Source of the DNA: Escherichia coli
GTDB lineage: Bacteria > Pseudomonadota > Gammaproteobacteria > Enterobacterales > Enterobacteriaceae
NCBI RefSeq assembly: GCF_036507355.1
Contig: NZ_AP027877.1
DNA length: 64,000 nucleotides
Direction: 5' to 3' (one strand)
Part shown: piece after piece, positions 43,873 to 62,243 of the stretch
Layout: each line of letters opens with the position of its first letter
How positions within the stretch are numbered: the first letter of the stretch is position 1
Program-made: the position numbers and the translations under genes
The notes under the pieces: model-generated
Told to the model about the DNA's origin: nothing
What the model saw: the letters and a program-made list of their open reading frames with translations, nothing else
Database searches by the model: none

Positions 43873-44166
43873 TTAAAAGAAGAAGAAAATCAGCCCGACA
43901 ATGAGAACAATATCGGCAAGCAATGGGCAAAAAATCCCTTGCCAAAGAACCTTCTGCGGACGAAAGCCCACGCCGTGAATCACACCAGCACAGACGGCCC
44001 ACATCAGCAATAAACCATGCCAGATTTCCAGTTCACTGGTCTTCGCGGCAAAACGAGATGGGTCCCAAAACATACATCCTGCTAACAGAAGCGCCATCAC
44101 GAAGGAAAGCGCCCGCAGGGGGCGCTTGTCCATTACCGCATACAAGGTCGCGATAATCTTACTCAT
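43873..44166 (-). CDS. ybgE: cyd operon small membrane protein YbgE
   Basis: 97-aa hydrophobic protein downstream of cydX. Confidence 0.88.
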   Translation of the reverse strand: MSKIIATLYAVMDKRPLRALSFVMALLLAGCMFWDPSRFAAKTSELEIWHGLLLMWAVCAGVIHGVGFRPQKVLWQGIFCPLLADIVLIVGLIFFFF

Positions 44167-44279
44167 CAGATGTCTTCTTGACCGGCTTTGCCTGATTCGA
44201 CGTGCTCAAGCGCCAGCGCGGTGATTACCCCAAACGAACAGGCAAGAAGCGTTCCCAGAATCCATGCGAAATACCACAT
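44166..44279 (-). CDS. cydX: Cytochrome bd-I small subunit CydX
   Basis: Hand-translated 37 aa MWYFAWILGTLLACSFGVITALALEHVESGKAGQEDI; its stop overlaps the ybgE start (ATGA). Confidence 0.9.
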   Translation of the reverse strand: MWYFAWILGTLLACSFGVITALALEHVESGKAGQEDI

Positions 44280-44293
44280 TTTTAGCTCCTTAC

Positions 44294-45433
44294 TTAGTAC
44301 AGAGAGTGGGTGTTACGTTCAATATCTTCTTTGGTGATACGACCGAACATTTTCCAGTAACACCAGGCGGTGTAGAGCAGAATGATCGGTACCAGAACCA
44401 CCGCAACCCAGGTCATGACGTTAAGCGTCAGCTGGCTGGAAGTTGCATCCCACATTGTCAGACTTGCGTTCATCATGGTGCTGGACGGCATCACAAACGG
44501 GAACATTGCGATACCGGCTGTCAGGATGATGCAGGCCAGCGTCAGGGAGGAGAACACAAACGCCCACGCGGCTTTATCCATACGTGCAGTCAGGATGGTC
44601 AGCAGCGGCAGAACCACACCCAGTGCCGGAATAGCCCACAGAATTGGCGTGTTGTTGAAGTTAACCAGCCATGCGCCAGCTTCACGAACCACTTCTTTAT
44701 TCAGTGGGTTAGAGGCTGCGTAATGGTCCATTGTCGATTTCACGACATAACCATCGATACCGTACATCACCCATACGCCAGCCAGTGCGAAGCAGACCAG
44801 TGTCACCAGTGCCGCCACCTGAGCCGTTGCACGGGTACGCAGGTGCAGTTCGCCCACGGTACGCATTTGCAGATAGGTTGCGCCCTGAGTAATGATCATC
44901 CCTACGCTCACCACGCCAGCCAGCAGGCCGAACGGGTTAAGCAGCTGGAAGAAGTTACCGGTGTAGTACAGACGCAGATATTCATCAACGTTGAACGGTA
45001 CGCCCTGCAACAGGTTACCGAACGCTACACCAATCACCAGCGGCGGAACGAAGCTACCAATGAAGATGCCCCAGTCCCACATGTTACGCCAGCGGGTTTC
45101 TTCAATCTTGGAGCGGTAGTCAAAACCGACCGGACGGAAGAACAAAGACGCCAGCACGAGGATCATCGCCACATAGAAGCCGGAGAACGCAGCGGCATAG
45201 ACCATCGGCCAGGCAGCAAAGAGTGCGCCGCCCGCGGTGATCAGCCAAACCTGGTTACCGTCCCAGTGTGGAGCAATGGAGTTAATCATAATTCGACGCT
45301 CGGTGTCGTTACGACCGAGGAAACGGGTGAGCATGCCCACCCCCATGTCGAAACCGTCAGTGACTGCAAAACCAATCAGCAGAACGCCAACCAGCAGCCA
45401 CCAGATAAAACGCAATACTTCATAATCGATCAT
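44294..45433 (-). CDS. cydB: Cytochrome bd-I ubiquinol oxidase subunit II
   Basis: 379-aa membrane protein. Confidence 0.96.
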   Translation of the reverse strand: MIDYEVLRFIWWLLVGVLLIGFAVTDGFDMGVGMLTRFLGRNDTERRIMINSIAPHWDGNQVWLITAGGALFAAWPMVYAAAFSGFYVAMILVLASLFFRPVGFDYRSKIEETRWRNMWDWGIFIGSFVPPLVIGVAFGNLLQGVPFNVDEYLRLYYTGNFFQLLNPFGLLAGVVSVGMIITQGATYLQMRTVGELHLRTRATAQVAALVTLVCFALAGVWVMYGIDGYVVKSTMDHYAASNPLNKEVVREAGAWLVNFNNTPILWAIPALGVVLPLLTILTARMDKAAWAFVFSSLTLACIILTAGIAMFPFVMPSSTMMNASLTMWDATSSQLTLNVMTWVAVVLVPIILLYTAWCYWKMFGRITKEDIERNTHSLY

Positions 45434-45448
45434 TTGACGACTCCTGTC

Positions 45449-47017
45449 TTAGCGTGCCGGCTGAGTAGTCGTGGAAGACTGCTCAAAGTGATAGCGACCG
45501 GTTTTCAGGCTGCTTGGGCCGAGGCGTGCAAACTTGAACATTAAGAACAATTCTGCCACCAGGAACAGGGTATACAGGCCGCAAATCAGCACCATTGAGA
45601 AGATGAGATCGCCTGCGGTCAGTGACGAGTTCGCCACAGCTGTCGGCAGCACTTCACCGATAGCCCACGGTTGGCGGCCATATTCAGCCACGAACCAGCC
45701 CGCTTCTACAGCAATCCACGGCAGCGGAATACCGTACAGCGCGGCGCGCAGCAGCCATTTTTTCTCGCCAATGCGGTTGCGGATAACACTCCAGAAAGAG
45801 AGCGCGATGATTGCCAGCAGCAGGAAGCCACACGCCACCATGATACGGAACGCGAAGTACAGCGGCGCTACACGCGGAATGGAGTCTTTGGTTGCCTGTT
45901 GAATCTGAGCTTCAGTCGCATCAGCCACGTTTGGCGTATAGCGTTTCAGCAGCAGACCATAACCGAGGTCTTTCTTCATGCTATTGAACTGGTCACGAAC
46001 CGCCTGGTCGGTAGAACCAGAACGCAGCTGTTCGAGCAGAGAGTACGCCTTCATCCCGTTACGAATGCGTTCTTCATGCTGCACCATCAGTTCTTTCAGG
46101 CCGATAACTGGAGTATCCACGGAACGCGTTGCAATGATGCCCAGCGCGTAAGGGATCTGGATCGCAAATTTGTTCGTCTCCTCTTCCTGATCAGGAATGC
46201 CGAACAGAGTAAAGGCAGCAGGCGCAGGTTGCGTTTCCCACTCGGCTTCAATAGCAGCCAGTTTGGTTTTCTGCACGTCGCCCATTTCGTAGCCGGATTC
46301 ATCACCCAGAACAATAACAGACAGAACGGCAGCCATACCGAAGCTGGCAGCGATAGCAAAGGAGCGTTTAGCGAAGGCGAAGTCACGACCTTTCAGCATA
46401 TACCATGCGCTGATACCGAGGATGAACATCGCGCCAGTCACATAACCAGACGCTACAGTGTGAACGAATTTCACCTGAGCAACCGGGTTAAGCACCAGCT
46501 CGGAGAAGCTCACCATCTCCATACGCATAGTTTCAAAGTTGAAATCGGACGCGATTGGGTTTTGCATCCAGCCGTTCGCAACCAGAATCCACAGTGCGGA
46601 CAGGTTTGAACCGAGCGCCACCAGCCAGGTGACACACATATGCTGAACTTTACCCAGACGATCCCAACCGAAGAAGAACAGACCTACAAAGGTGGATTCG
46701 AGGAAGAAGGCCATCAGACCTTCGATTGCCAGCGGCGCACCGAAGATATCCCCTACATAGTGGGAATAGTAAGACCAGTTAGTCCCGAACTGGAACTCCA
46801 TGGTCAGACCGGTAGCCACACCCAGAGCGAAGTTGATACCAAACAACTTGCCCCAGAACTTGGTCATATCTTTATAAATCTGTTTGCCGGAAAGGACGTA
46901 GACCGTTTCCATAATGGCCAGCAGGAACGCCATACCGAGCGTCAGTGGCACAAAAAGGAAGTGGTACATCGCGGTCAAGGCAAACTGTAAGCGCGACAGT
47001 TCGACTATATCTAACAT
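45449..47017 (-). CDS. cydA: Cytochrome bd-I ubiquinol oxidase subunit I
   Basis: [24 protein letters not shown]...; 522 aa from the second ATG. Confidence 0.96.
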
Positions 47018-47355
47018 CATGACTCCTTGCTCATCGCATGAAGACTCCGAGAGTGAACCCCGTTAGAAAGGGTCACACGCATGCCCCAATACAAAATTAT
47101 TTGCTCGCCTCTATCGTTGCCATTTCATCAAAAGAGGAAAAGACAATGATAAAAAAAGTTACAAATATGTTAATGAATAAACCAAATTGATCCCGTAATT
47201 ATATTACGCCGCAAAATCCTTACAATAAACAGGTTTTTATTGAGCAAATTTGCATTTTTCGACAGTGATCAATTTATAGCGAAATTGTCACGATCTCACC
47301 AATTTGATCTACGACAATTTATCGTGTTTTGCAGAATTTTTTCAAGAATTAAAAA

Positions 47356-47369
47356 TTGATTTATATCAA
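47356..47369. promoter_or_regulatory. FNR-type site in the cydA upstream region
   Basis: TTGAT-ttat-ATCAA, a perfect match to TTGAT-N4-ATCAA, in the long AT-rich cydA control region. Confidence 0.6.
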
Positions 47370-47823
47370 AACCAATCAAATATGTTAATTATGTATAAAC
47401 CATAGATCATTGGTGATTTTATTGTTAATTTATTGTGAAATATTTATGCAACACAATTATTACAATGAAAAGGTATAGATAAAAAACCAGTATTTTATTT
47501 AACAGAACCGCCTTATCCACTTTTTATAATACCAATTGATTAGAGTAGCCAATTTGTTGCTATTTTACATAACATATTTTTATCAAAGTTAATTGATTGT
47601 TACCTTTATGAGCACCGACCGTAAGCCCGTTATGTTATTGTTTCATTAGTAATAATCACTTAAATGTATCGATGAAACAGGTATGACTTACCGGGAGTGA
47701 TTGTTTCTGAGTGAACAGAGGCCACTTTCGCCTGATAAATGAAAAATGAGCGATTTTTGCAAGTTAGTTTTTCTATAGCCGAGTACGCTCAGCGCCTCGC
47801 TTGATTACAATGAGGTTGCTGCT

Positions 47824-48768
47824 ATGAGTCCTGATAATATCGGTTCGGCTGTCAATCGCTTCTCAGGTTGGCCATCTAATGATTCTCTAAAAACAGATAA
47901 AGAATCAATGACATCACCCGTGACTGTGCAGGTAATAAAGATGATTGCCGCCATCCTTGACCCACATCGGATAGTCGTTGGAATCGATACACTTTATACA
48001 ACGCAGCGCGAAACATTTACCTCAGAGAGTCAACAGCTCATTGAATCAGCATTGCAAACACTTCATGTGATGAATTTAAATAATCTGGAAACAAATCGCG
48101 ATGAAGAAGGTCACTATCTGGCTTTTGAATATAACGTTGACACCTCTGACAGAATAACCGTTTCTGCTTATAATGAAAAAAAGCCTGGCTGCTATGGCCA
48201 ATGTCTTGTAATACAGGATGACGAAACAGACTTATTTAACCTGATAAAAATTAAAATTTTCGAAGCCAGGCATAATTATGTCGCTCAATTGATGAGCGAT
48301 CCGGAATTTATGTTCAAATTCAGTTATAGCGCTCAACAAAATAGATTAGAACCTCATCTTCTGGTTCCCGCTTATTTCCCTCTAAAAACAAACGAACCGG
48401 TTACGCAAGAGGATGTACTGTTACTTTATCGTTTCTTTAAAATGAATGATGATTTTAATAAATTAACATCAGATGAATACATGAGTATCCTGACACCTCT
48501 GATGAAGTGTGAGCGTAGCGTCCACGACAACAACAGGTATGTGACGGGCAAAGATACCCTTCTTCTGGACTATCCTCCTTCTGGTAACCAGATACATTTC
48601 CATGTTTTCCCTGACGAATCAGCAACACTAGTCCTTTATTTTTCAAACAATGACCTTGAATGTTTCGTCTTTGAAAGAGATATTCCTAGCCAGTATCGCT
48701 TTTTCAAAATGTTTACCAATCTGGCACTGGTTATAGATCAGTTAACCGAAGCCAATAAAATACTTTAA
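47824..48768 (+). CDS. Hypothetical protein, AT-rich, no recognisable domain
   Basis: 314-aa uninterrupted ORF with visibly lower GC than flanking core genes; absent from the K-12 gene order at this locus. Confidence 0.55.
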   Translation: MSPDNIGSAVNRFSGWPSNDSLKTDKESMTSPVTVQVIKMIAAILDPHRIVVGIDTLYTTQRETFTSESQQLIESALQTLHVMNLNNLETNRDEEGHYLAFEYNVDTSDRITVSAYNEKKPGCYGQCLVIQDDETDLFNLIKIKIFEARHNYVAQLMSDPEFMFKFSYSAQQNRLEPHLLVPAYFPLKTNEPVTQEDVLLLYRFFKMNDDFNKLTSDEYMSILTPLMKCERSVHDNNRYVTGKDTLLLDYPPSGNQIHFHVFPDESATLVLYFSNNDLECFVFERDIPSQYRFFKMFTNLALVIDQLTEANKIL

Positions 48769-48848
48769 TTTTCTATATATCCCTATGGCTAATATTGCTA
48801 AACAATGCCTGGGGATTAATTTTTATTACTCACGGAAAGATTTAAATA

Positions 48849-49271
48849 ATGATACCATCTCAGATCTCTTTCAATACCCTTCCAGTCAATGCAACATACG
48901 CTTCAGAGACAACAGTTGACACACAAAAATTCTCTGACATCCTCTACTCAGCGGGGTGTTCCCTAAAGGATATGGCTTATCTGAGCAGATGTCTGGCATC
49001 AATACACCCGACTATCGCCAAAAACATTTATGAAACAGAAAATCTCAGCGATCAAAAATTACTGCATATTGATTGCCGTAGTACAAATGAAATCAAGATA
49101 AATATCTTTTTTGGTCAGCAAAGAGAAGGGTTAATTGAAATTAGTTCTGACACAGTTATTTTTTCGATACTGTCTTCATTGATTGACTCCGCCATTTCTA
49201 AATTTCAACACCAAAACCCGGTTAACGGTTTAGTTAATCCTGAAATATTGTATGAGGATTATACTGATTAA
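48849..49271 (+). CDS. Hypothetical protein, AT-rich
   Basis: 140-aa ORF immediately downstream of and co-oriented with the 314-aa ORF; plausible RBS (ggaaag) upstream. Confidence 0.45.
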   Translation: MIPSQISFNTLPVNATYASETTVDTQKFSDILYSAGCSLKDMAYLSRCLASIHPTIAKNIYETENLSDQKLLHIDCRSTNEIKINIFFGQQREGLIEISSDTVIFSILSSLIDSAISKFQHQNPVNGLVNPEILYEDYTD

Positions 49272-49818
49272 ATCCACCCTGTCGCGAAAAATGGCCTGCG
49301 TTATTGCCAGACGTAATAAAACCTTTGATTAACGTTACTCATACTGGTAGCACCTTCATGTACCTCTCTTTTTTACGAAAAATCAAAAGAGCTAACTAAG
49401 GTCATAATTCGCATGAATCATTAACCATTTGTTATTTTCAACATTATTTTTACATTAAGCAGAGATGAATTGCAGTGAAATTCGACTTAAATCTTATGAA
49501 ATGCATTTACTCATGGCTAAAACCACGTCACAAAAATGCAAATTAGAAGTAGATCACAATTATCTCAATACATTAAATCAAGTTAATTTTAAAAATTTAA
49601 CATTCATGACATTAGTTGACATAACACACTGAATTAACATGGAAATTTAAAAACACACTTTAAACAATCATTTCCCGAAAGACATTTTGAAAATAGATCA
49701 ATTGCAACATTACGGTCAGATAAAGACACTCCTGTGATATTAAACCTGTGCCGTTATGAACGGCCATAAATACGACGTGTGTAACTTATTTTACTCTCTG
49801 TCTTACAAAGGATTACCC

Positions 49819-50268
49819 ATGAAGAAAGCAACACTTGTGATTGGCGTTATTGGCGCGGACTGCCATGCAGTAGGCAATAAAGTTCTGGACCGCGTTTTTA
49901 GCAACCACGACTTCAGAGTCATTAATCTGGGCGTAATGGTCAGCCAGGACGAATATATTGATGCTGCCATTGAAACTGGCGCTGACGCGATTGTCGTCTC
50001 CTCTATCTATGGGCATGGCGATATCGACTGTCTGGGCATGCGCGAACGCTGCATCGAGCGTGGACTGGGGGACATCCTGCTCTATGTGGGCGGTAACCTG
50101 GTGGTCGGAAAACATGACTTCGCTGACGTGGAAACCAAATTCAAAGAGATGGGATTTGATCGCGTCTTTGCCCCAAGTCATGACTTAGAAGATGTTTGTC
50201 AGCTGATGGCCCACGATATCAACCAACGTCATGACATTGATACTCGTATTCTTGAAGAGGCTATCTGA
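49819..50268 (+). CDS. glmS: Glutamate mutase sigma subunit (B12-binding)
   Basis: [22 protein letters not shown]... with the DxHxxG cobalamin-binding motif; about 149 aa; RBS aaagga. Confidence 0.85.
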
Positions 50269-51656
50269 TGCAAATCGTCTCTGTCGATATTGGATCGACG
50301 TGGACCAAAGCAGCCCTCTTCACCCGGGAGGGGGACGCGTTAACGTTGGTTAACCACGTACTGACCCCAACCACCACCCATCATCTGGCGAAGGGGTTTT
50401 TCTCCAGCCTGAACCAAGTGTTAAACGTAGATAATGCCCTCCCCCTGTTAAACAGCGGTGAGGTTGCATTGAAGTATTCCTCCTCTGCCAAAGGTGGGCT
50501 GGCGGTTGCCGCAATGGGATTGGTGCCTTCTATCACCCTGGAAACCGCGAAAGTAACCGCTCACTCTGCGGGTGCTAAAATTGCGCAATATTACGCCTAC
50601 AAGCTGAACCGCCGTGATATCCAGGCACTGGAAGAAACGCAGCCCGATATTCTCTTGTTCACCGGCGGCACCGACGGCGGAGAAGAAAGCTACGGACTGA
50701 ATAACGCCCGTGTGCTGGCAGAATCCAAACTCGACTGCGCCATTATTTATGCCGGAAACCGGGATATTCAGGACGAGGTGCAGGAGCTCCTCGGGCATAA
50801 AGACCTGACCATCGTCGACAATGTTCTGCCCGATCTTGACCATCCGAACCCTTTAGCCGCACGCCAGGCTATTTGCGACATATTCCTTAAACGCATCGTT
50901 AAAGGGAAAGGGCTGGATGTCATTGTTGATAAAACAGGCGAAGAACCAATGCCGACACCATGGACGGTCTTTGAACTGGTCAAGGCAATCAGTAACGTCG
51001 ATCACAGCTGGAAAGAGTTCATGCTGATCGACATGGGCGGCGCAACCACCGATGTTTATTCCGTCTGTGCCAACACGCTCTCGCCCGACACCGTTTTACA
51101 CGGCGTACCGGAACCCTTCGTAAAACGGACGGTGGAAGGCGATCTGGGAATGCGCGTCTCGGCAGTGGTGGTTGGTGAAAGTGCGAAAGAGTTAGTCAAT
51201 GTGAATTTTGCTCAGCAACCCGCACAGCTGGACGCTTTTTATCATTACCTCCGTCATCTAGTCGCTCATCCCGACTACTTACCCGCAAATGCAGAAGAGA
51301 AATATTTCGATACCGTCCTGGCCGGACTGTGTGTGGGTTATGCCACCGAAAGACATGCGGGCACCAAAAAAGAGGTCTGCACCTGCGTCGGCAATGTCGA
51401 TTTACAGATGGGACGTGACCTGACAACCGTGCGTAAAGTCGTCGGATCCGGCGGATGGCTCTCGCGTGCCAGTCAGTTCGATATGCATCACTGGTTGAAA
51501 TACCGCGAGTTAAACGACGACGGTAAACGCATTCTCTTACCGACCGAATTTGAATATTACCGCGATTCCCGGGGGCTATTACCACTGCTGGCAAACGTCG
51601 CCAGAGTCGATCCGCTGGCCGCCGCGCGCACCAGTATTCAATGCTTAACCCTATAA
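50268..51656 (+). CDS. glmL: Glutamate mutase accessory protein GlmL/MutL-like
   Basis: 462 aa between the S and E subunit genes, the size and position expected for GlmL. Confidence 0.75.
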   Translation: MQIVSVDIGSTWTKAALFTREGDALTLVNHVLTPTTTHHLAKGFFSSLNQVLNVDNALPLLNSGEVALKYSSSAKGGLAVAAMGLVPSITLETAKVTAHSAGAKIAQYYAYKLNRRDIQALEETQPDILLFTGGTDGGEESYGLNNARVLAESKLDCAIIYAGNRDIQDEVQELLGHKDLTIVDNVLPDLDHPNPLAARQAICDIFLKRIVKGKGLDVIVDKTGEEPMPTPWTVFELVKAISNVDHSWKEFMLIDMGGATTDVYSVCANTLSPDTVLHGVPEPFVKRTVEGDLGMRVSAVVVGESAKELVNVNFAQQPAQLDAFYHYLRHLVAHPDYLPANAEEKYFDTVLAGLCVGYATERHAGTKKEVCTCVGNVDLQMGRDLTTVRKVVGSGGWLSRASQFDMHHWLKYRELNDDGKRILLPTEFEYYRDSRGLLPLLANVARVDPLAAARTSIQCLTL

Positions 51657-51674
51657 CAATTAAGGCTGCAATCA

Positions 51675-53120
51675 ATGGAACTTCGAAATAAGAAATTAAC
51701 CCATGACGAATTCATGACCGAGCGGCAACAGGTACTGAAAACCTGGGAAACCGGCAAGGATGTTGAAAACTTTGAAGATGGCGTTAAATACCAACAAACC
51801 ATCCCTGAGCATAAACGCTTCTCTCTTGCGCTGCTGAAAGCAGACAAGGAAGGTAAAACCCTTAGCCAACCGCGCGCAGGTGTGGCGCTGATGGACGAAC
51901 ACATCGAACTGCTGAAAACACTACAAGAAGAGTGCGATCTGCTGCCAAGCACCATCGATGCATATACCCGTCTGAATCGGTACGAAGAAGCGGCTGTAGG
52001 GATTAAAAAATCCATCGAAGCCGGAACCTCTAAACTGAACGGTTTACCGGTAGTTAACCATGGTGTCGCAGCTTGCCGTCGCCTCACCGAAACCCTGCAA
52101 AAACCGCTACAGATCCGCCACGGCACGCCAGATGCGCGTCTGCTGGCTGAAATCTCAATGGCCAGCGGCTTTACCAGTTATGAAGGCGGTGGCATTTCCT
52201 ACAACATTCCGTATGCCAAACGCGTAACGCTGGAAAAATCGATCCGCGACTGGCAGTACTGCGACCGTTTAATGGGGATGTATGAAGAACACGGGATCCG
52301 CATCAACCGCGAACCGTTTGGCCCACTAACGGGTACGCTGATCCCGCCGTTTATCTCGCATTCTATCGCGATAATCGAAGGCTTGCTGGCACTGGAACAG
52401 GGTGTGAAATCTATCACCGTTGGTTATGGCCAGGTCGGCAGCCTGACGCAGGATGTTGCGGCGATCCAGTCTCTGCGTGAACTTGCACACGAATATTTTC
52501 AGAGCTATGGCTATACCGACTATGAATTGAGTACCGTGTTTCACCAGTGGATGGGCGGCTTTCCGGAAGACGAATCGAAAGCGTTCGCTATTATCTCCTG
52601 GGGTGCAGCCGTCGCGGGGATGTCTGGTGCCACCAAAGTCATCACCAAAAGTCCGCACGAAGCCTGGGGTATCCCGACTGCCGCTGCCAACATTCAGGGG
52701 CTGAAAGCCTCCCGCCAGATGCTCAACATGGTCAATGAGCAGAAATTCCCGCCGTGCCCTGCGGTTGAACTGGAAATTGAACTGATTAAGAGCGAGGTTC
52801 GCGCTGTACTGAATAAAGTGTTCGAACTGGGTAATGGTGATATTGCGCGCGGTACGGTGCTGGCATTTGAAGCGGGCGTACTGGATGTGCCATTTGCGCC
52901 AGCCGCCTGCAACGCGGGCAATATTCTTCCGGTCCGTGACAACACCGGCGCGATACGCGTACTGGAAGCCGGAGCCGTTCCATTGCCAAAAGATATTCTC
53001 GATCTCCACCACGATTACGTTGCGGAACGCGCACGCTTTGAAGGACGCCAACCGACATTCCAGATGGTTGTAGATGACATCAATGCTGTATCCCACAGTA
53101 AATTAATAGGAAGACCATAA
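51675..53120 (+). CDS. glmE: Glutamate mutase epsilon (catalytic) subunit
   Basis: 481 aa, the size and position expected for GlmE/MutE. Confidence 0.8.
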   Translation: MELRNKKLTHDEFMTERQQVLKTWETGKDVENFEDGVKYQQTIPEHKRFSLALLKADKEGKTLSQPRAGVALMDEHIELLKTLQEECDLLPSTIDAYTRLNRYEEAAVGIKKSIEAGTSKLNGLPVVNHGVAACRRLTETLQKPLQIRHGTPDARLLAEISMASGFTSYEGGGISYNIPYAKRVTLEKSIRDWQYCDRLMGMYEEHGIRINREPFGPLTGTLIPPFISHSIAIIEGLLALEQGVKSITVGYGQVGSLTQDVAAIQSLRELAHEYFQSYGYTDYELSTVFHQWMGGFPEDESKAFAIISWGAAVAGMSGATKVITKSPHEAWGIPTAAANIQGLKASRQMLNMVNEQKFPPCPAVELEIELIKSEVRAVLNKVFELGNGDIARGTVLAFEAGVLDVPFAPAACNAGNILPVRDNTGAIRVLEAGAVPLPKDILDLHHDYVAERARFEGRQPTFQMVVDDINAVSHSKLIGRP

Positions 53121-54361
53121 TGAAAATAAAACAGGCTCTGTTCACCGCTGGCTACTCCTCATTCTATTTCGATGACCAGCAGGCGATAAAAAACGGAGCG
53201 GGTCATGACGGCTTTTTTTATACCGGGGAGCCGGTAACACAGGGGTTTAACGCCGTTCGTCAGGCCGGGGAGTGCGTATCGGTACAGTTGATTCTGGAAA
53301 ACGGCGCGGTCGCTGTAGGTGACTGTGCTGCCGTACAGTATTCCGGGGCAGGTGGTCGCGACCCACTGTTCCTCGCAGAGCTCTTTATTCCGTTCCTCAA
53401 CGACCATATCAAGCCATTACTGGTAGGCCGCGATGTGGATGCTTTCCTGCCGAATGCCCGTTTCTTCGACAAATTGCGTATTGACGGCAACTTGCTGCAT
53501 ACCGCCGTGCGCTACGGATTATCACAGGCGCTGCTTGATGCTACCGCGCTGGCAACCGGCCGTCTGAAAACTGAAGTGGTCTGTGATGAATGGCAGTTGC
53601 CACGCGTGGCGGAATCCATTCCATTATTTGGTCAGAGCGGCGACGATCGATATATCGCCGTCGATAAGATGATCCTTAAGGGCATCGACGTGCTGCCCCA
53701 TGCGCTGATTAATAACGTCGAAGAGAAGCTGGGCTTTAAAGGTGAAAAACTGCGCGAATATGTCCGCTGGTTGTCGGATCGCATTCTAAGCAAGCGCACC
53801 AGCGCACGCTACCACCCAACCTTGCACATCGATGTATACGGCACTATCGGTCTGATCTTCGATATGGATCCGCTTCGCTGTGCGCAATACATCGCCAGCC
53901 TGGAAAAAGAAGCGCAAGGCCTGCCGCTCTACATTGAAGGGCCGGTCGATGCCGGTAACAAGCCCGATCAAATTCGCCTGCTGACCGCGATTACCAAAGA
54001 GCTGACGCGCCTCGGTTCCGGCGTGAAAATTGTGGCCGATGAATGGTGTAACACCTACCAGGATGTTGTTGATTTCACTGATGCCGCCAGTTGTCACATG
54101 GTGCAAATCAAAACCCCGGATCTGGGCAGTATTCACAACATCGTCGATGCGGTTCTTTACTGCAACAGCCACAGCATGGAAGCGTACCAGGGCGGCACCT
54201 GCAATGAAACTGATGTCAGTGCCCGCACCTGTGTCCACGTCGCCCTTGCCGCTCGCCCTATGCGTATGCTGGTAAAGCCAGGGATGGGCTTTGACGAAGG
54301 CCTCGATATCGTCTTCAACGAAATGAATCGTACTATCGCGCTGTTGCAGGCTAAGGATTAA
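53120..54361 (+). CDS. 3-methylaspartate ammonia-lyase (enolase superfamily)
   Basis: 413 aa, directly downstream of glmE. Confidence 0.82.
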   Translation: MKIKQALFTAGYSSFYFDDQQAIKNGAGHDGFFYTGEPVTQGFNAVRQAGECVSVQLILENGAVAVGDCAAVQYSGAGGRDPLFLAELFIPFLNDHIKPLLVGRDVDAFLPNARFFDKLRIDGNLLHTAVRYGLSQALLDATALATGRLKTEVVCDEWQLPRVAESIPLFGQSGDDRYIAVDKMILKGIDVLPHALINNVEEKLGFKGEKLREYVRWLSDRILSKRTSARYHPTLHIDVYGTIGLIFDMDPLRCAQYIASLEKEAQGLPLYIEGPVDAGNKPDQIRLLTAITKELTRLGSGVKIVADEWCNTYQDVVDFTDAASCHMVQIKTPDLGSIHNIVDAVLYCNSHSMEAYQGGTCNETDVSARTCVHVALAARPMRMLVKPGMGFDEGLDIVFNEMNRTIALLQAKD

Positions 54362-54364
54362 CAA

Positions 54365-55734
54365 ATGGCTCGTTCTTTTAAAGTCTTATCGCCAACAGCA
54401 ATCCTCGGGTATGGATTCCCGGAAGAGAGCTTCCGCAAAGCGATGGCAGAATCACCCGATCTGATCGCCGTTGATGCAGGCTCTTCCGATCCAGGCCCCC
54501 ACTACCTCGGGCAGGCAAACCGTTTACCGATCGCGCAGGGGTCAAGCGCGATCTGCGCTATATGATCACCGCAGGCGTGCAAAATAATATACCGGTGGTG
54601 ATCGGAACGGCCGGCGGTTCTGGTGCCGCTCCACACCTGGAGTGGTGCCGAGAAATAATTCATGAGATTGCCCAGGAAGAGCACCTCTCGTTCTCGATGG
54701 CGTTGATCCCGGCAGACGTTGACAAAGCCATCGTCCACCAGGCGCTGGATAACGGCAAAATCACGGCGCTGGATTTTGTCCCGCCGTTAACCCACGACGC
54801 GATTGACGAAAGTACGTATATCGTCGCGCAAATGGGCATCGAACCCTTCCAGCGGGCGCTAAAAGAAGGCGCGCAAGTGGTGCTGGGTGGGCGCGCTTAC
54901 GACCCGGCCTGCTTTGCTGCGCTACCGATCATGCAAGGCTTTGATGAAGGTCTGGCGCTGCATTGTGGGAAAATCCTTGAATGCGCGGCAATCGCCGCAA
55001 CGCCCGGCTCAGGCTCTGACTGTGCGATGGGCATCATTGATGACAACGGCTTTACGCTGAAGACATTTAATCCGAAGCGTAAATTTACCGAAACGTCAGC
55101 AGCTGCACACACACTGTATGAGAAATCCGATCCCTACTTCCTGCCAGGACCTGGCGGCGTGTTGAACCTGAAAGGCTGCACATTTAAAGCAGTCAATGAC
55201 GGCGAAGTCTACGTCAGCGGTTCTAAGCATGAAGAAACGCCGTATGCCCTGAAACTGGAAGGTGCACGACGGGTGGGCTTCCGCTGTCTGACCATCGCCG
55301 GAACGCGCGACCCGATTATGATCGCCGGGATCGATAAACTCATCGATGAAGTCAAAACCAGCGTTTCGCGTAACCTGTCGCTCGACGATGACAGCATTCG
55401 CATCAATTTCCACCTGTACGGCAAAAACGGGGTGATGGGAGACCATGAACCGATGCAAACTGCCGGGCATGAGCTGGGGATTGTTCTTGATGTAGTTGCA
55501 CCGACCCAGGAAATTGCCAATAGCGTTTGCTCGCTGGTGCGCTCTACCATGCTGCACTACGGCTATGAAAACCGCATCGCTACCGCAGGTAATCTGGCGT
55601 TCCCGTTCTCCCCTTCTGATATCCAGGGCGGGCCGGTATACGAATTTTCCATATATCACCTGATTGAAGCCAACGACGCTCTGCGTTTTGATTTCCATAT
55701 TGAACAGGTGACGCCAGAAGGAGTTCAGGCATGA
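54365..55734 (+). pseudogene. AtuA-like DUF1446 protein with an apparent +1 frameshift near 54515-54565
   Basis: Two consecutive ORFs (54365..54565 and 54562..55734) in different frames together make one ~455-aa DUF1446-type protein. Confidence 0.55.
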
Positions 55735-56048
55735 AACAGTCAATTGTCTCACTGGCGCAAGTCATTCGTTCGAAAAATGCCGGACCTTACGAACTGGTTT
55801 TAGATATTTTATTTAAAACGAAAGAAAACTATGAGCGAGTTAAATCATCAGGGCAATTAACCCCAGAACTGATTGCGCGCTTATATCATGTTGAACCTGA
55901 CTTTATTCATCGTATTGTCTGGTTTGATCCTTCTAACGCAGTAAAAATCGTCATGCCACGAGATATTATCTCCGGGAATGTAGGTGACAATGATGTCTAT
56001 GGTGCACAGCAACATGCACCTTTATTAAATATGAGTTTCGATTTGTAA
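55731..56048 (+). CDS. DUF4387-family small protein (partner of DUF1446)
   Basis: 105 aa, start overlaps the DUF1446 stop. Confidence 0.6.
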   Translation: MKQSIVSLAQVIRSKNAGPYELVLDILFKTKENYERVKSSGQLTPELIARLYHVEPDFIHRIVWFDPSNAVKIVMPRDIISGNVGDNDVYGAQQHAPLLNMSFDL

Positions 56049-56208
56049 AAATCCGAATACTTTTAGCCAACTGACATCCCGTCACTTATTGCAGTTCAAC
56101 ACTTCAGCTATTTGTAAGGTTGTAATAGCAGGTAGATGCCTGAATCTCTATTCAGGCATCTACTTCTCCTGATTCTGATTTATCGCCGTGCACCTGATGG
56201 AGGAAAAA

Positions 56209-57489
56209 ATGAAGAAAATAAGTTTAACCACGATGATTCTTTTGGCGCTGGTACTTGGAATGATTATCGGCGTAGTGCTCAATAACACTGCTTCACCGGA
56301 AACAGCAAAACTCTATGCGCAAGAAATATCGATATTCACGACGATTTTCTTACGACTGATAAAAATGATTATCGCTCCGTTAGTGGTCTCTACCCTGGTG
56401 GTAGGTATTGCTAAAATGGGCGATGCCAAAGCCCTTGGTCGTATTTTTTCTAAAACACTCTTTTTATTTATTTGCGCCTCATTGCTGTCAATTGCCTTAG
56501 GCTTGATAACGGTAAATTTCTTCATGCCAGGCACAGGAATTAATTTTGTTGCACACGGTGCCGAAACCACAGGAGTGGTCGCGTCAGAACCCTTTACGCT
56601 AAAAGTATTTATTTCGCATGCTTTCCCCACCAGCATTGTCGATGCCATGGCGCACAATGAAATTTTGCAAATCGTGGTGTTCTCAATTTTCCTCGGCTGT
56701 AGCCTGACGGCGATTGGCGAGAAAGGCAGCGCCATCGTTCACGCCTTAGATTCGCTGGCACATGCCATGTTAAAGCTCACTGGCTACGTCATGCTCTTCG
56801 CTCCCCTGACCGTATTCGCCGCTATTTCAGCATTGATTGCTGAACGAGGACTGGCAGTTATGGTGAGCGCCGGGATCTTTATGGGTGAATTTTATTTCAC
56901 CATGTTATTACTTTGGGTGCTGCTTATCGGTCTGGCCATCGTTTATGTCGGCCCCTGCATCAGACGCCTGACCCGCGCCCTTTCGGAACCCGCCCTGCTG
57001 GCATTTACCACATCCAGTTCTGAAGCGGCTTTTCCGGGAACGCTTGAAAAACTGGAGCAATTTGGCGTTTCCCCCAAAATTGCCAGCTTTGTCTTACCCA
57101 TTGGCTACTCATTTAATCTCGTTGGATCAATGGCCTACTGCTCCTTCGCCACAGTTTTCATCGCCCAGGCCTGCAATATCCATTTATCCATCGGTGAGCA
57201 AATCACCATGCTGTTGATCCTGATGTTGACCTCGAAAGGAATGGCTGGCGTACCACGCGCCTCAATGGTGGTTATCGCCGCCACGCTCAACCAGTTCAAT
57301 ATTCCGGAAGCGGGGCTGATCTTGCTGATGGGCGTTGATCCGTTCCTTGATATGGGGCGTTCCGCGACAAACGTCATGAGCAACGCAATGGGCGCTGCGA
57401 TGGTGAGTCGGTGGGAAGGCGAACATTTCGGCGAGGGCTGTCGGGGTAAAGCATTAAAACCCAATGAATCGAACGTTGCTCTGCCCTGA
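56209..57489 (+). CDS. Dicarboxylate/amino acid:cation symporter (DAACS/GltP-DctA family)
   Basis: About 427-aa polytopic membrane protein; ATG at 56209 preceded by RBS ggagg. Confidence 0.8.
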   Translation: MKKISLTTMILLALVLGMIIGVVLNNTASPETAKLYAQEISIFTTIFLRLIKMIIAPLVVSTLVVGIAKMGDAKALGRIFSKTLFLFICASLLSIALGLITVNFFMPGTGINFVAHGAETTGVVASEPFTLKVFISHAFPTSIVDAMAHNEILQIVVFSIFLGCSLTAIGEKGSAIVHALDSLAHAMLKLTGYVMLFAPLTVFAAISALIAERGLAVMVSAGIFMGEFYFTMLLLWVLLIGLAIVYVGPCIRRLTRALSEPALLAFTTSSSEAAFPGTLEKLEQFGVSPKIASFVLPIGYSFNLVGSMAYCSFATVFIAQACNIHLSIGEQITMLLILMLTSKGMAGVPRASMVVIAATLNQFNIPEAGLILLMGVDPFLDMGRSATNVMSNAMGAAMVSRWEGEHFGEGCRGKALKPNESNVALP

Positions 57490-57596
57490 GGGGGATCTTA
57501 AGCAATCAGAAGCCAATGACTACGCATTTTTATAAGCCGGATCATGAAGTTAGACGGCAATTAAGTAACACTAACGTTTAAGGTGAAAAGTGAAAT

Positions 57597-59249
57597 ATGT
57601 CCAAACCATTTATCTGGCAAGAACCGTTTCTACAAAATAAAGACGGTACAGAATATACATTAATTAGCGATCAACATATTACAGTAACGGAATTAGACGG
57701 CGAAGAAGTGATAAAAATCGCTCCTGAAGCATTAACGCTGCTTGCCCGGCAGGCATTTTATGAAGCCTCTTTTTTCTTACGTTCCGCTCATTTGCAACAG
57801 GTCGCCAGCATTCTTAACGATCAGCAGGCCAGCAGTAATGATAAATACGTTGCGTTGCAGTTATTACGTAATGCTGAAGTCTCAGCAAAAGGGGTATTAC
57901 CCAACTGTCAGGATACCGGCACCGCAACTATTGTTGCCAGTAAAGGGCAACAGATATGGACCGGAAGTAACGACGCCGAAGCTTTAAGTAAAGGCATTTA
58001 CAGTACTTTCCAGGAAAATAATCTGCGCTTTTCACAAAATGCGCCGCTGGATATGTATACCGAAGTCAATACGCAAACCAATCTCCCGGCGCAGATTGAT
58101 ATCAGCGCTGTCGCTGGTGATGAGTACCATTTTCTCTGTGTTAATAAAGGGGGCGGCTCCGCCAATAAAGCCGCGCTTTATCAGGAAACCAAATCCTTAT
58201 TGCAACCAGAAAAACTGACCGCATTTTTAATCGAAAAAATGAAATCGCTGGGCACCGCTGCCTGCCCGCCTTACCACATCGCCTTTGCCGTCGGAGGGCT
58301 TTCAGCCGATCAAACCTTAAAAGTTGCCAAGCTGGCCTCAACGAAATATTACGACAATTTGCCCACCAGCGGAAACGAGCAGGGACAAGCATTCCGTGAT
58401 ATTGAGCTGGAAAAAGCGTTGCTCGAGGCCAGTCAGCAATTTGGTATTGGTGCACAATTTGGGGGGAAATATTTCGCTCATGATATTCGCGTCATTCGTC
58501 TGCCGCGTCACGGTGGCTCTTGCCCGATAGCTATGGCGCTCTCCTGTTCTGCCGATCGCAATATCAAAGCAAAAATTAACAAACACGGTATCTGGCTAGA
58601 AAAACTCGAACACAATCCGGGGCAATATATTCCAGCCTCATTGCGGGAAGAAAATCACGCGCAACATGTACAACTGGATCTAAACCGTCCGTTGCGTGAC
58701 GTGATGCTGGATCTCGCCAGATTACCGGTAGGTACCCGCGTGTCGTTAAGTGGTCCCATCGTAGTGGCGCGCGATATCGCCCACGCCAAAATAAAAGCGC
58801 GGCTGGATAGCGGCGAATCGATGCCGGAGTACCTGAAGCATCATATTGTCTATTACGCTGGCCCGGCGAAAACACCGGAGAACATGGCCTGCGGTTCACT
58901 GGGTCCAACCACGGGCGGTCGAATGGATGGTTATGTCGATACCTTCCAGGCGGCCGGCGGCAGTCTGGTGATGTTATCGAAAGGTAACCGCAGCCAGCAG
59001 GTCACCGATGCCTGTCACAAACATGGCGGCTTCAATCTGGGAAGTATTGGCGGTGCAGCTGCGTTACTGGCGCAAGAATATGTCAAAAGTCTGCGTTGCC
59101 TGGAATACCCGGAGCTGGGTATGGAAGCGGTGTGGATGATGGAAGTGGAAAATCTGCCCGCATTCATCCTGGTAGATGATAAAGGCAATAATTTCTTTAG
59201 TCAGTTTGAGCAGCAACACCGCTGCGCCAGTTGCCCTGCGGGACATTAA
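57597..59249 (+). CDS. fumD: Class I (Fe-S) fumarate hydratase paralog, likely mesaconase (FumD-type)
   Basis: 550 aa with class I fumarase features; embedded in the methylaspartate cluster. Confidence 0.8.
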
Positions 59250-59258
59250 GGAAAATGA

Positions 59259-59861
59259 ATGGAAGCGCGAATTTCAACTGAACGGCATGTGCAGCGCCAA
59301 CAGAAATTGAAGGAACAGGTCGATACGCGCGTCGCGGCGGCGATAGAGAAAAAAGGGATCTTGATTGTTTTCACCGGCAACGGCAAAGGGAAATCCACTG
59401 CCGCGTTTGGTACTGTGACGCGCGCGGTGGGTCATGGCAAAACGGTGGGGGTTGCGCAGTACATCAAGGGGCAATGGGACAACGGCGAATACAACCTTCT
59501 CCAGCCGCTGGGGGTTGAGTTTCATATTATGGGAACCGGTTTTACCTGGGAGACACAGAACCGGCAAGCGGATATCGACGCGGCGAAAGAGGTCTGGTCG
59601 GAAAGCAAACGGATGCTGGCTGACAAGCGTTACGACTTAGTGGTGCTTGATGAGCTGACCTATATGCTGGCTTACCATTATTTGGATACCGAAGAAGTGA
59701 TCGCTTCTCTGCAAAACCGCCCGGCACAACAAAGTGTCATTGTCACCGGACGCGGTTGCCACAGTCAGATATTAAAAATGGCGGATACGGTAAGCGAAAT
59801 CCGCCCCGTCAAACATGCTTTTGATAACGGCATTCAGGCCCAGCCGGGTATAGACTGGTAA
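59259..59861 (+). CDS. Cob(I)alamin adenosyltransferase (CobA/BtuR-type paralog)
   Basis: 200 aa with P-loop VFTGNGKGKSTAAFG and strong similarity to BtuR. Confidence 0.85.
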   Translation: MEARISTERHVQRQQKLKEQVDTRVAAAIEKKGILIVFTGNGKGKSTAAFGTVTRAVGHGKTVGVAQYIKGQWDNGEYNLLQPLGVEFHIMGTGFTWETQNRQADIDAAKEVWSESKRMLADKRYDLVVLDELTYMLAYHYLDTEEVIASLQNRPAQQSVIVTGRGCHSQILKMADTVSEIRPVKHAFDNGIQAQPGIDW

Positions 59862-59894
59862 TAACTGCGCCTGGCATCCCGCCAGGCGCAGGTT

Positions 59895-60557
59895 TTACAT
59901 CTCCTGCGGTACGACCGATTTCGCCAGCAACCATTCACGAAATTGCTGCAAGTGCGGTGAGTCAGACTTCTCTTCCTGCCACGTCATAATAAAACGATTA
60001 CCGGTACGAATAGGCACATCACAGGGAATCACCATATCGCCACTATCCAAATCATGTTGAATAGCGAAACGTGGTAACAGCGCCACGCCGAGATTAGAGC
60101 GCACGGCGGCAATCAGCATTGAAAGCAAATCGAAACGTGGTCCGTTATTGACCAACGGACTGCTAACGCCAGATAAAGCAAACCACTCTTCCCAGCCAGT
60201 AATACGGGTGCTTTGATGCAGAAGCGGTAACTCAGTAAGCAGTTCTGCCACTGACAGCTTTTGATCGGACATTGCAAGCAAACTGCCGCTGCATACCGGC
60301 AAAATCTCCTCATCAAAGAGATATTCTACTTCCGCCCAGGGCGCGCAAAAATTTTCGCGCATAATGACAGCATCGTACTCCCGATTAAGAAAATCGCCGT
60401 TATTAGCTAAAGAATGAATATTAACAATAATATCGGGATGTAACTTTGTGAATTCATGTAAATTTGGGATCAACCAGTGGGTACTAAAAGTAGGATTAAC
60501 GGCAAGTTCAATAACCTGAACCGTAGGCTGCCAGGTCATAATGGTATTGGTATCGCG
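59895..60557 (-). pseudogene. LysR-family regulator, C-terminal part (interrupted by IS1)
   Basis: LysR substrate-binding domain; frame is continuous with the N-terminal HTH fragment once IS1 and one copy of the 9-bp duplication are removed. Confidence 0.8.
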
Positions 60558-60612
60558 GGTGATGCTGCCAACTTACTGATTTAGTGTATGATGGTGTTTT
60601 TGAGGTGCTCCA

Positions 60613-60888
60613 GTGGCTTCTGTTTCTATCAGCTGTCCCTCCTGTTCAGCTACTGACGGGGTGGTGCGTAACGGCAAAAGCACCGCCGGACATCAGCGCT
60701 ATCTCTGCTCTCACTGCCGTAAAACATGGCAACTGCAGTTCACTTACACCGCTTCTCAACCCGGTACGCACCAGAAAATCATTGATATGGCCATGAATGG
60801 CGTTGGATGCCGGGCAACAGCCCGCATTATGGGCGTTGGCCTCAACACGATTTTACGTCACTTAAAAAACTCAGGCCGCAGTCGGTAA
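60613..60888 (+). CDS. insA: IS1 InsA
   Basis: [41 protein letters not shown]...; slippery A6C site (ttaaaaaactc) near 60868 for the InsAB' fusion. Confidence 0.95.
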
Positions 60889-61310: not shown

Positions 61311-61326
61311 GTTGGAGTCATTACCG

Positions 61327-62169: not shown

Positions 62170-62243
62170 ACCATGTCGAAACCGACAGCCCTTCGCCATT
62201 CCTGTAGAGGGAAGCGGCGAGGGCTATTTCTTATTACAGATAT

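Follow-up and report, generated by a model that had tools for sequence, protein, structure and literature searches.

The AT-rich spacer upstream of cydA in an island-bearing Escherichia coli: probably a divergent allele of the cydABX control region, fused to a methylaspartate-island leader

The window analysed here is a stretch of 64,000 nucleotides of Escherichia coli DNA (contig NZ_AP027877.1 of assembly GCF_036507355.1), in which cydA lies on the minus strand with its start codon at 47017, as annotated in RefSeq for a protein of 522 aa. By the annotation of near-identical O157:H7 records, cydA, cydB, cydX, and ybgE are the genes directly downstream of the spacer. A second in-frame ATG at 47020 extends the cydA ORF and was taken as the boundary by the first-pass annotation of this DNA. 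The next ORF beyond the spacer encodes 314 aa (orf314) and starts at 47824 on the plus strand. Between the two genes lies:
47018-47823: the whole cydA-orf314 divergent intergenic region, 806 bp, 32.9% GC, with the RefSeq boundaries of O157:H7 records

The GC content of the window as a whole is 50.6%, and the spacer reaches as little as 23-26% near ~47150-47600 when averaged over 300 bp. No other spacer of the annotated 28-kb neighbourhood is as long; the next ones measure 666 and 547 bp, and most are shorter than 150 bp. The first-pass annotation had described some 800 bp of AT-rich DNA upstream of cydA, which agrees with what we find, but its wording "unusually long" does not hold for this gene: the mngB-cydA spacer of K-12 measures 846-847 bp and carries five promoters and H-NS binding (PMC3946193), and Enterobacterales with sucD upstream have AT-rich cydA spacers of ~560-1090 bp without any island. 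For Enterobacterales, a cydA spacer of 0.6-1.1 kb represents the ancestral condition.

In the low-oxygen gut E. coli relies on the high-affinity oxidase cytochrome bd-I, and the cyd promoter of K-12 is the textbook case of interplay between ArcA, FNR, and H-NS. FNR and ArcA were mapped in K-12 by ChIP-seq (Myers et al. 2013 and Park et al. 2013, respectively); the K-12 site positions used below were taken from ChIP-seq and TSS supplements, the assignments to P1-P5 being indirect. The part of our spacer around the FNR sites contains:
47356-47369: perfect FNR palindrome TTGATTTATATCAA, no mismatches, at -53.5 of P1, counterpart of K-12 site 770333
47304-47317: second FNR site TTGATCTACGACAA, two mismatches (one in K-12), corresponding to K-12 site 770385 and placed at about -1.5 of P1
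47309-47345, minus strand: P1-like promoter TTGAAA-18-TAAATT, predicted TSS at ~47309, equivalent of the K-12 TSS with a 288-nt UTR

By chance, 0.06 perfect matches to TTGATNNNNATCAA would be expected in the whole window, and 0.005 perfect palindromes in dinucleotide shuffles specific to the spacer (P = 0.005). TTGAT-N4-ATCAA had been reported earlier at exactly 47356-47369, and two lines of evidence back its reading as an FNR site: the K-12 counterpart TTGATATTTATCAA (770333), assigned to -53.5 of the cydAB promoter in a published site list, is covered by an FNR ChIP-seq peak, and the half-sites show no change in 13 of the 14 genera aligned. Between the half-sites, the N4 spacer reads AAAT in K-12 and TTAT here. 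The GATCAA half of the second site is invariant in all 14 sequences, as is the -10 of P1 (TAAATTG) across the aligned genera. The two FNR sites stand 52 bp apart, as in K-12, and are centred 345.5 and 293.5 bp from the ATG against 341.5 and 289.5 bp in K-12, distances that agree once the 4-nt longer UTR here is allowed for; the published value of -53.5 for the palindrome equals 341.5 minus the 288-nt UTR of P1.

TSSs of strain EDL933, which were determined by Cappable-seq in eight conditions (PMC10469882, Table S5), were mapped to the window, from which EDL933 differs within the spacer by three SNPs and one indel. For cydA they give:
47259-47278, minus strand: promoter with -10 TATAAA, TSS 47266, UTR of 248-249 nt, seen in all eight EDL933 conditions
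47196-47225, minus strand: main promoter block TTGTAA-16-TATAAT / TAATAT, TSS 47196, UTR of 178-179 nt, 10/12 match
47090, minus strand: cydA TSS with a 73-nt 5'UTR, in EDL933 in stationary LB only, with a -10-like AATAAT at 47096-47101

Several TSSs (47266, 47196, and 47090) are found within ~290 nt of the ATG, as in the K-12-type cydAB region, for which the same Table S5 gives cydA UTR lengths of 288, 256, 245, 174, and 90 nt. The EDL933 UTRs of ~248 and ~178 nt correspond to those of 245 and 174 nt in K-12, while the one of 73 nt is without exact K-12 counterpart, the nearest listed being 90 nt. The main promoter block, invariant across the aligned genera, is the counterpart of K-12 TSS 770509 (Kim 2012) and of an anaerobic sigma70 ChIP peak, and its EDL933 start (855563; window 47196) was seen in 6 of the 8 conditions. 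The 47266 promoter coincides with a block, GCTATAAATTGATCAC, that is conserved in the multi-genus alignment, and is overlapped by an FNR-like half-site (TCGACAGTGATCAA, 47259-47272). None of the eight EDL933 conditions, all of them aerobic-type cultures, yielded the predicted P1 start (~47309). Six sigma70-like matches were scored in the spacer, all on the cydA strand, a number not above that in shuffles (4.5±2.5).

For ArcA, a PWM was built from Table S3 of Park et al., and the spacer was scanned and scored in bits against shuffles. Seven boxes of at least 10 bits were predicted, against 1.3±1.1 in shuffles (0/200), and they group into three clusters, located 147, 373-439, and 560-577 bp before the ATG:
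47156-47173, plus strand: ArcA box III AAGTTACAAATATGTTAA, 20.5 bits, counterpart of K-12 ChIP-seq region cydA3
47382-47465: ArcA cluster II, with boxes at 47382-47399 (16.2 bits), 47411-47428 (14.5 bits), 47422-47439 (20.5 bits), and 47448-47465 (13.9 bits), counterpart of K-12 cydA2
47569-47603: distal ArcA boxes, at 47569-47586 (17.3 bits, cydA-sense) and 47586-47603 (16.6 bits), 560-578 bp upstream of the ATG

These clusters coincide with the three ArcA ChIP-seq regions of K-12, situated 143, 378-409, and 581-626 bp from the ATG. Of the 31 sequences scanned, 28 have box III at 140-153 bp upstream of the ATG, and 22 have a box of at least 12 bits 540-630 bp upstream, where the shuffle rate predicts about two. 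The strongest ArcA ChIP site in the K-12 cydA spacer is cydA1, at 581 bp (Park et al. 2013); the distal boxes would match it by position only, the surrounding sequence being unalignable with K-12, and they may regulate orf314 instead of, or besides, cydA. Boxes II and III are predicted to be stronger here (20.5 and 20.5 bits) than in K-12 (13 and 15 bits), whereas box I is weaker than, and differently oriented from, K-12 box I. Such differences in predicted box strength could be tested as a reason why strains differ in microaerobic respiration.

Farther from cydA, the spacer is composed of the following parts:
47441-47659: distal block, 83-89% shared with E. coli having only a TPR gene here, unalignable with K-12
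47546-47582, plus strand: divergent orf314 promoter TAGCCA-18-TAACAT, TSS 47582, 242-nt 5'UTR
47660-47823, plus strand: island-specific segment, 42% GC, distal part of the orf314 5'UTR, with SD GAGG at 47812-47815

The suggestion of the first-pass annotation that this end of the spacer may also serve as promoter for the adjacent AT-rich genes is confirmed by a published EDL933 start, gTSS 855177 (gene 3965, minus strand there; exponential LB and acid conditions), which maps to 47582 on the plus strand. The promoter is weak, matching the sigma70 consensus at 8 of 12 positions, and it overlaps the distal ArcA boxes; a simple sigma70 scan returned no plus-strand promoter for orf314 and, given the published TSS, was too strict. 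For annotation it is of note that the TSS of the orphan orf314 sits within the cydA control region. The distal block holds short patches that are conserved in other genera. The segment 47660-47823 is present in 1138 of 5426 genomes, and homology with genomes of the TPR type ends at 47659, which places the island boundary for annotation at ~47660 rather than at the orf314 start codon. Rightward of the spacer come the genes of the methylaspartate (glutamate fermentation) island, among them glmS, glmL, glmE, methylaspartate ammonia-lyase, and a class I fumarase (FumD); orf314 and orf140 gave no match in Pfam, NCBIfam, or PADLOC. We found no tRNA in 44000-64000, no annotated integrase in the island, and no junction repeat inside the spacer, i.e., none of the marks of a classical integrative-island junction (tRNA, integrase, flanking direct repeats). 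The alternative cargos between conserved flanks suggest, from sequence comparison, replacement by homologous recombination.

Comparison with K-12, which had been proposed as the check on the earlier reading, reveals a region that is not fully conserved, with the junction inside the spacer at ~47660. Only the stretch from 47018 to ~47440 (~420 bp) can be aligned with K-12, at 69-85% identity depending on the measure, and it is therefore a divergent allele and not the K-12 sequence. Homology to the K-12 spacer does not extend over the whole length, and local alignment of the distal spacer half here with that of K-12, scored against shuffles, uncovered no cryptic homology (z = -0.5 to 0.2). Over columns 30-375 of alignment A3 the two E. 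coli alleles are 69% identical, and either of them is 65-74% identical to Citrobacter, the closest outgroup among the matches listed; cydA itself is 99% identical between the alleles (15/1569 nt differ). Divergence rises from the cydA start outward in every comparison, and one patch stands out:
47105-47160: rapidly evolving spacer within the 5'UTR, variable in all genera, the two E. coli alleles being ~42% identical here (A3 columns 321-375)

By spacer class the genomes comprise 3182 of the mng type, 1138 of the island type, and 1098 of the TPR type. Allele and cargo are linked: 3173 genomes carry the K-type allele and 3182 the mng-type spacer, while 2247 carry the W-type allele and 2236 the island- or TPR-type spacer. 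Of complete E. coli genomes, ~41% have the allele of the window, O157:H7 and B2-type strains among them. In 3045 of 3182 genomes the K allele has an identity of 99% or more, and a recombinant, HH97, joins a K-type proximal part to a TPR-type distal part. The mng and TPR cargos adjoin cydA in other genera too. The same core gene is preceded by three classes of region, the proximal alleles being 69-82% identical and cydA 99%, which fits IGR switching with its classes of less than 90% identity or without homology, a phenomenon said to go also by the name of horizontal regulatory switching, reportedly after Oren et al. 2014.

Could the difference over the proximal 420 bp have arisen by fast neutral drift within E. 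coli, without exchange of whole regulatory alleles? The lack of constraint between genera on the most divergent patch (47105-47160), and the increase of divergence with distance from cydA, would fit such a history; we nevertheless regard it as improbable, for the alleles differ from one another as much as from Citrobacter while cydA is nearly unchanged, they are discrete and tightly linked to cargo, with a nearly uniform K allele and the recombinant HH97, and two of the cargos occur beside cydA in other genera. Less probable still is the view that most of the AT-rich DNA came in with the methylaspartate cluster as foreign island DNA, the FNR palindrome being a chance match and the cydA promoter only a short adjoining stretch. 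Although the GC content is low (23-33%), the distal 385 bp cannot be aligned with K-12, and the adjoining genes are AT-rich orphans of no known family, the palindrome is kept in 13 of 14 genera and matches the K-12 FNR ChIP-seq site; moreover, 47441-47659 also occurs in 1098 E. coli genomes without the island and shares patches and ArcA boxes with other genera. Only 47660-47823 is island-specific, and long AT-rich spacers are found across Enterobacterales without an island.

A further possibility concerns the distal half (~47441-47823), which might mainly be the promoter and 242-nt leader of orf314, with the ArcA boxes repressing orf314 by occluding its -10 and TSS. The plus-strand TSS at 47582 indeed lies between and over the distal boxes (47569-47603), no cydA TSS of EDL933 was mapped distal to 47266, and none of the five K-12 promoters is more than 288 nt from the ATG. 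Against this, the same block and boxes exist in TPR-type genomes without a divergent gene within ~700 bp, a distal box at ~580 bp recurs in genera with a co-oriented neighbour (sucD or mngB), and the distal site of K-12 gives the strongest ArcA ChIP signal in its cydA spacer. As the main role of the distal half we think this rather unlikely; control of cydA and control of orf314 are compatible with each other.

The spacer is very probably the transcriptional and translational control region of cydABX (cytochrome bd-I) in a divergent allele, fused to the leader that precedes the first methylaspartate-island gene. The element is already known, being the well-studied oxygen-responsive cydAB region of E. 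coli, and was read correctly in the first-pass annotation: its proximal ~420 bp are conserved across Enterobacteriaceae and contain the FNR sites, ArcA sites, and promoters known from K-12. The K-12 cydAB promoter/operator region was reportedly treated by Cotter et al. in 1997 and by Govantes et al. in 2000. Going away from cydA, the parts are arranged as leader, variable spacer, ArcA box III, TSS 47196, TSS 47266, P1 with the FNR sites, ArcA cluster II, and distal ArcA boxes. By analogy with K-12, ArcA, FNR, and H-NS would bind and act on this allele as well. H-NS, which the K-12 literature reports at the cydA spacer, would coat and silence the AT-rich DNA; when oxygen drops, phosphorylated ArcA would bind the three modules and relieve this silencing, and under full anaerobiosis FNR at the two sites around P1 would repress in part, the net outcome being a microaerobic peak of cydA expression. 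The distal block also holds a weak divergent promoter for the orphan orf314 (TSS 47582, plus strand).

The cydA-proximal end of the region may have a translational function:
47012-47095, minus strand: conserved cydA leader, a putative RNA of ~85 nt with helix 1, helix 2, and a mini-ORF

The leader is conserved across Enterobacterales, and an alignment of 14 Enterobacteriaceae retains it, together with ArcA box III. Helix 1 (47051-47078) is a covarying stem-loop, in which 10/10 pairs show compensatory changes (90 compensatory cells against 23.6±6 in shuffles; 0/500). Helix 2 (47021-47045) pairs UCUUC/UGC with GCA/GGAG and covers the cydA Shine-Dalgarno sequence (47023-47028); its sequence is invariant, and the pairing is without covariation support. 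Its 5' arm is overlapped by a mini-ORF, AUG CGA UGA (47039-47031), with an SD of its own. RNAalifold on a MAFFT alignment missed helix 1, whose arms were misaligned; per-sequence folding and covariance-model alignment were used instead, and they found the hairpin in 28 of 29 distinct sequences (mean z -2.1, per-sequence folding) and matches of covariance model R1 exclusively to cydA leaders, in 57 of 82 sources. The fold of the whole 205-nt 5'UTR has no excess stability (z = 0.04), a scan of 46800-48000 with Rfam 15 gave zero matches at E <= 1, and a literature search for an E. coli cydA leader, sRNA, or uORF returned nothing relevant. A 21-codon uORF (ATGCGTGTG...TGA) overlapping the cydA ATG was rejected, since indels of 1-2 nt in helix 1 break its frame in other genera. 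Tentatively, and with some doubt, we propose from these sequence patterns that 47012-47095 may encode an undescribed cis-regulatory leader RNA. A separate point, better supported and less surprising than the leader RNA, is that the two cydA regulatory alleles of E. coli diverge as genera do, each tied to a different cargo in the sucD-cydA hotspot, with ArcA and FNR sites kept in place in both. The cydA SD could, for instance, be freed by ribosomes translating the mini-ORF or by a bound factor; if real, the leader would add a translational layer to the oxygen control of cytochrome bd-I, and it is worth a test as a translational control element.

Compared with the K-12 cydAB region, the gene, the position, the two FNR sites, the three ArcA modules (~145, 375-415, and 560-580 bp), and the main promoter are the same, and both spacers are AT-rich and H-NS-prone (846 bp in K-12, 806 bp here). 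The upstream neighbour, in contrast, is divergent here with its own TSS in the spacer, whereas mngB of K-12 is co-oriented, and the distal 385 bp are not homologous. Evidently, K-12 promoter maps are not transferable base for base to pathogens, and that the transcription-factor sites hold their position argues for selection on regulatory logic. The genes to the right of the spacer are the methylaspartate cluster of O157:H7 (Kronen and Berg 2015, PMC4682846), a study of enzymology that leaves aside both the boundary with the cydA control region and the pair of orphan genes. The locus resembles the "switched" IGRs of Piggy (Thorpe et al. 2018, PMC5890482) in that the core gene cydA lies behind alternative divergent or non-homologous regions and, as in the "upstream" class of Piggy, the upstream gene differs too; our literature search did not find cydA named as an example of IGR switching. 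Unlike in switched IGRs, the transcription-factor sites of cydA keep their position in both alleles, so that the regulatory logic is preserved and not replaced. The putative leader, finally, is akin to SD-sequestering hairpins and to mini-ORF or start-stop leaders, in that helix 2 would mask the cydA SD and a two-codon ORF overlaps its 5' arm; it differs from the general class of SD-sequestering leaders in being without an Rfam family and in that its regulation is a prediction.

The first-pass annotation had drawn attention to a long, strongly AT-rich control region upstream of cydA, and this finding is real and was correctly interpreted. The window is E. coli, and its stretch 46900-47900 matches O157:H7 and related genomes at 99.6-99.9% identity. 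The cydA gene lies on the minus strand with its RefSeq start codon at 47017 (ORF calling gives an alternative boundary at 47020, from a second in-frame ATG), and orf314, a hypothetical ORF of 314 aa on the plus strand, starts at 47824; the spacer therefore comprises 47018-47823, or 806 bp. Its GC content is 32.9% compared with 50.6% window-wide, confirming the reported AT-richness and length of about 800 bp, and it is the longest spacer of the annotated neighbourhood. The perfect FNR palindrome TTGATTTATATCAA is indeed present at 47356-47369, and a perfect TTGATNNNNATCAA arises by chance in 0.5% of dinucleotide shuffles of the AT-rich spacer. Another perfect TTGATNNNNATCAA (TTGATTTCGATCAA), at 63684-63697, falls in a coding part of the suc operon and probably arose by chance.

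The description "unusually long" did not hold for cydA. The K-12 mngB-cydA spacer measures 846 bp (847 bp in the literature, with five promoters, bound H-NS and several peaks of RNA polymerase binding), and among the 80 CydA-bearing Enterobacterales loci listed the spacers are ca. 560-1090 bp where sucD is directly upstream and ca. 685 bp where mngB is. Given such long spacers in K-12 and other Enterobacterales, the long AT-rich cydA spacer is the ancestral state. The immediate upstream neighbour of cydA varies in Enterobacteriaceae (loci L006-L085 from other genera): sucD, mngB, a TPR protein, or other cargo; C. amalonaticus keeps only an mngB remnant (the last 86 aa, 51% identity).

The supplement of Myers et al. 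gives two predicted FNR sites under the K-12 cydA ChIP-seq peak, 770333 (TTGATATTTATCAA) and 770385 (TTGTTCTCGATCAA), and their main table places the cydAB FNR site at -53.5. Measured from the ATG, the centres of the K-12 sites lie 341.5 and 289.5 bp upstream and those of the window 345.5 bp (the perfect palindrome) and 293.5 bp (TTGATCTACGACAA, 47304-47317); the 4-bp shift is a 5'UTR indel. The palindrome is the counterpart of 770333, and TTGATCTACGACAA that of 770385. Published 5'UTR lengths of K-12 cydA are 288, 256, 245, 174, and 90 nt (PMC10469882), and since 341.5 - 288 = 53.5, the palindrome is identified as the -53.5 site of promoter P1, with the second site at -1.5. The window has a P1-like TTGAAA-18-TAAATT at 47345-47316. 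The cydA transcription starts listed below were transferred from EDL933, whose spacer differs from that of the window by three SNPs and one 1-bp indel.

Control features of the cydA spacer; conservation was judged over 14 Enterobacteriaceae, the intervening sequence being variable
47012-47095, minus strand: leader, conserved in this set and upstream of cydA across Enterobacterales
47090: cydA start (EDL933 855668), Cappable-seq, stationary LB only
47156-47173: ArcA box III, conserved
47196: cydA start (EDL933 855563), Cappable-seq, 6 of 8 conditions
47266: cydA start (EDL933 855493), Cappable-seq, all 8 conditions; GCTATAAATTGATCAC block here conserved
47304-47317: FNR site at -1.5, GATCAA half conserved
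47356-47369: FNR palindrome at -53.5, half-sites intact in 13 of 14
P1 -10 element: conserved
Main promoter: conserved

The start at 47196 is carried by a conserved TTGTAA-16-TATAAT block, the counterpart of K-12 start 770509 and of an anaerobic sigma70 ChIP peak.

ArcA boxes were sought with a PWM trained on 115 of the 128 boxes that Park et al. list in their Table S3. The spacer holds seven boxes of at least 10 bits against 1.3±1.1 in shuffles (0/200), and five of at least 16 bits against 0.05 expected. They fall into three predicted clusters, whose distances from the ATG (147, 373-439, and 560-577 bp upstream) match those of the K-12 ChIP-seq regions cydA3, cydA2 and cydA1 (143, 378-409, and 581 bp); retraining the PWM without the three cydA sites left this result unchanged. 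Of the 31 sequences scanned, 22 have a distal box scoring 12 bits or more in the interval 540-630 bp upstream of the cydA ATG; about two would be expected from the shuffle rate. An exact repeat, CAAATATGTTAAT followed by ATG(A/T)ATAAACCA, is found at 47162-47184 and 47377-47402, its copies 215 bp apart; judged from sequence, box III and one box of cluster II (47382-47465) look like duplicated modules.

The first-pass suggestion that the far part of the region may also serve the adjacent AT-rich genes is supported by a published transcription start. EDL933 gene 3965, whose product WP_001310136.1 is the protein annotated for orf314 in a near-identical O157:H7 record, has a Cappable-seq start at 855177 in two conditions, mapping inside the spacer to 47582 on the plus strand, downstream of TAGCCA-18-TAACAT and with a leader of 242 nt. 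This start falls inside the distal ArcA boxes (47569-47603), so we infer that ArcA may repress the orf314 promoter. The AT-rich orphan genes 47824-48768 (314 aa) and 48849-49271 (140 aa) lie between cydA and glmS, followed by a spacer of 547 bp (49272-49818, 27-31% GC); neither orf314 nor orf140 matched a family in Pfam, NCBIfam or PADLOC.

The last ca. 85 nt before the cydA ATG are 97-100% identical among E. coli alleles and Citrobacter. We trained a covariance model on 15 sequences; of 82 sources, 57 gave a match, one per locus and in every case at the cydA leader, among them Serratia, Yersinia, Xenorhabdus, and Photorhabdus. Helix 1 (47051-47078) varies in sequence by genus while its pairing is kept, with double changes in 10 of 10 pairs and 90 compensatory cells against 23.6±6 in shuffles (0/500) and 10-25 in slid controls, counted on an alignment fitted to the model and hence biased towards the structure. 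As an independent check, 29 distinct leader segments folded singly gave the hairpin in 28 (mean z -2.1). In helix 2 (47021-47045) UCUUC/UGC pairs with GCA/GGAG, the GGAG being the cydA Shine-Dalgarno sequence; this helix is invariant, so covariation speaks neither for nor against it. A 2-codon mini-ORF, AUG CGA UGA (47039-47031), has its own GGAG 5 nt upstream and shares bases with the 5' arm of helix 2; a few genera have a longer version of it rather than none. Synonymous codon identity over cydA codons 1-20 (46958-47017) is 0.81 versus ca. 0.55 later (53 Enterobacterales), and over its first 200 nt the gene shows 98-99% identity between E. coli and Citrobacter. An Rfam scan of the leader gave no match and we found no literature on it; as a conserved regulatory RNA it is a candidate, and both it and the raised synonymous conservation are leads rather than results.

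The proposed comparison with K-12 showed a mosaic: the part from 47018 to ca. 47440 can be aligned, and beyond ca. 47440 similarity is not detectable (z = -0.5).

Identity of the window allele along the spacer
47018-47104: identical across all E. coli types
47105-47160: ca. 42% to the K-12 allele
47161-47290: ca. 86-95% to K-12
47291-47440: ca. 70-75% to K-12

Short patches ca. 450-485 and 600-640 bp upstream of the ATG are also conserved, and with the conserved boxes they indicate that the stretch out to ca. 640 bp behaves as an ancestral control region with fast-evolving spacers, in support of an island edge at ca. 47660. A third E. coli type, with a TPR-protein gene alone between sucD and cydA, supports this edge: it shares the window allele to 47659 (distal block identity 83-89%), its homology picks up again at 62143, ca. 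100 bp past sucD, and the sequence past 47660 is confined to genomes that carry the methylaspartate island. No tRNA was found in 44000-64000, the island has no annotated integrase, and the spacer showed no junction repeat. In the long spacer of one TPR-type locus (L004, 5997-6065), a stretch of 72 nt matches part of glmS (50052-50123) at 76% identity (E = 1e-7), a resemblance hinting that this locus formerly carried, or recombined with, the island. Within the island, an IS1 of 768 bp (60558-61325; canonical end sequence, 9-bp target duplication GGTATCGCG) interrupts a LysR-family regulator gene and is missing in O157:H7 strain Z1835.

Across 5426 complete genomes, the K-12 (mng) arrangement is seen in 3182, the island in 1138 and the TPR gene in 1098, and the proximal allele is K-type in 3173 and window-type in 2247; from the agreement of these counts, allele and cargo are almost perfectly linked, with rare recombinants such as HH97. 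The two alleles are 69% identical over the alignable promoter (A3 alignment, columns 30-375), the same level as either to Citrobacter (65-74%); the cydA coding sequences of the two types differ at 15 of 1569 positions. The mng operon also adjoins cydA in Enterobacter, Lelliottia and Kluyvera, and the TPR gene in Enterobacter sp. BIGb0383, which marks the sucD-cydA interval as a long-standing hotspot for the replacement of cargo. Together with the cargo, the regulatory allele of cydA appears to move too, probably by homologous recombination; one of the breakpoints would then fall within the invariant leader and cydA start, or beyond them. New here are the exact architecture of this allele, given in window coordinates, a junction specific to the cargo at ca. 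47660, the divergent start at 47582, the deep split of E. coli into two alleles and the candidate conserved leader RNA; the leader and the dimorphism count as modest leads. The element itself is already known: it is the control region of cydAB with the FNR site at -53.5, and its two-allele spacer agrees with the known class of "switched" intergenic regions.
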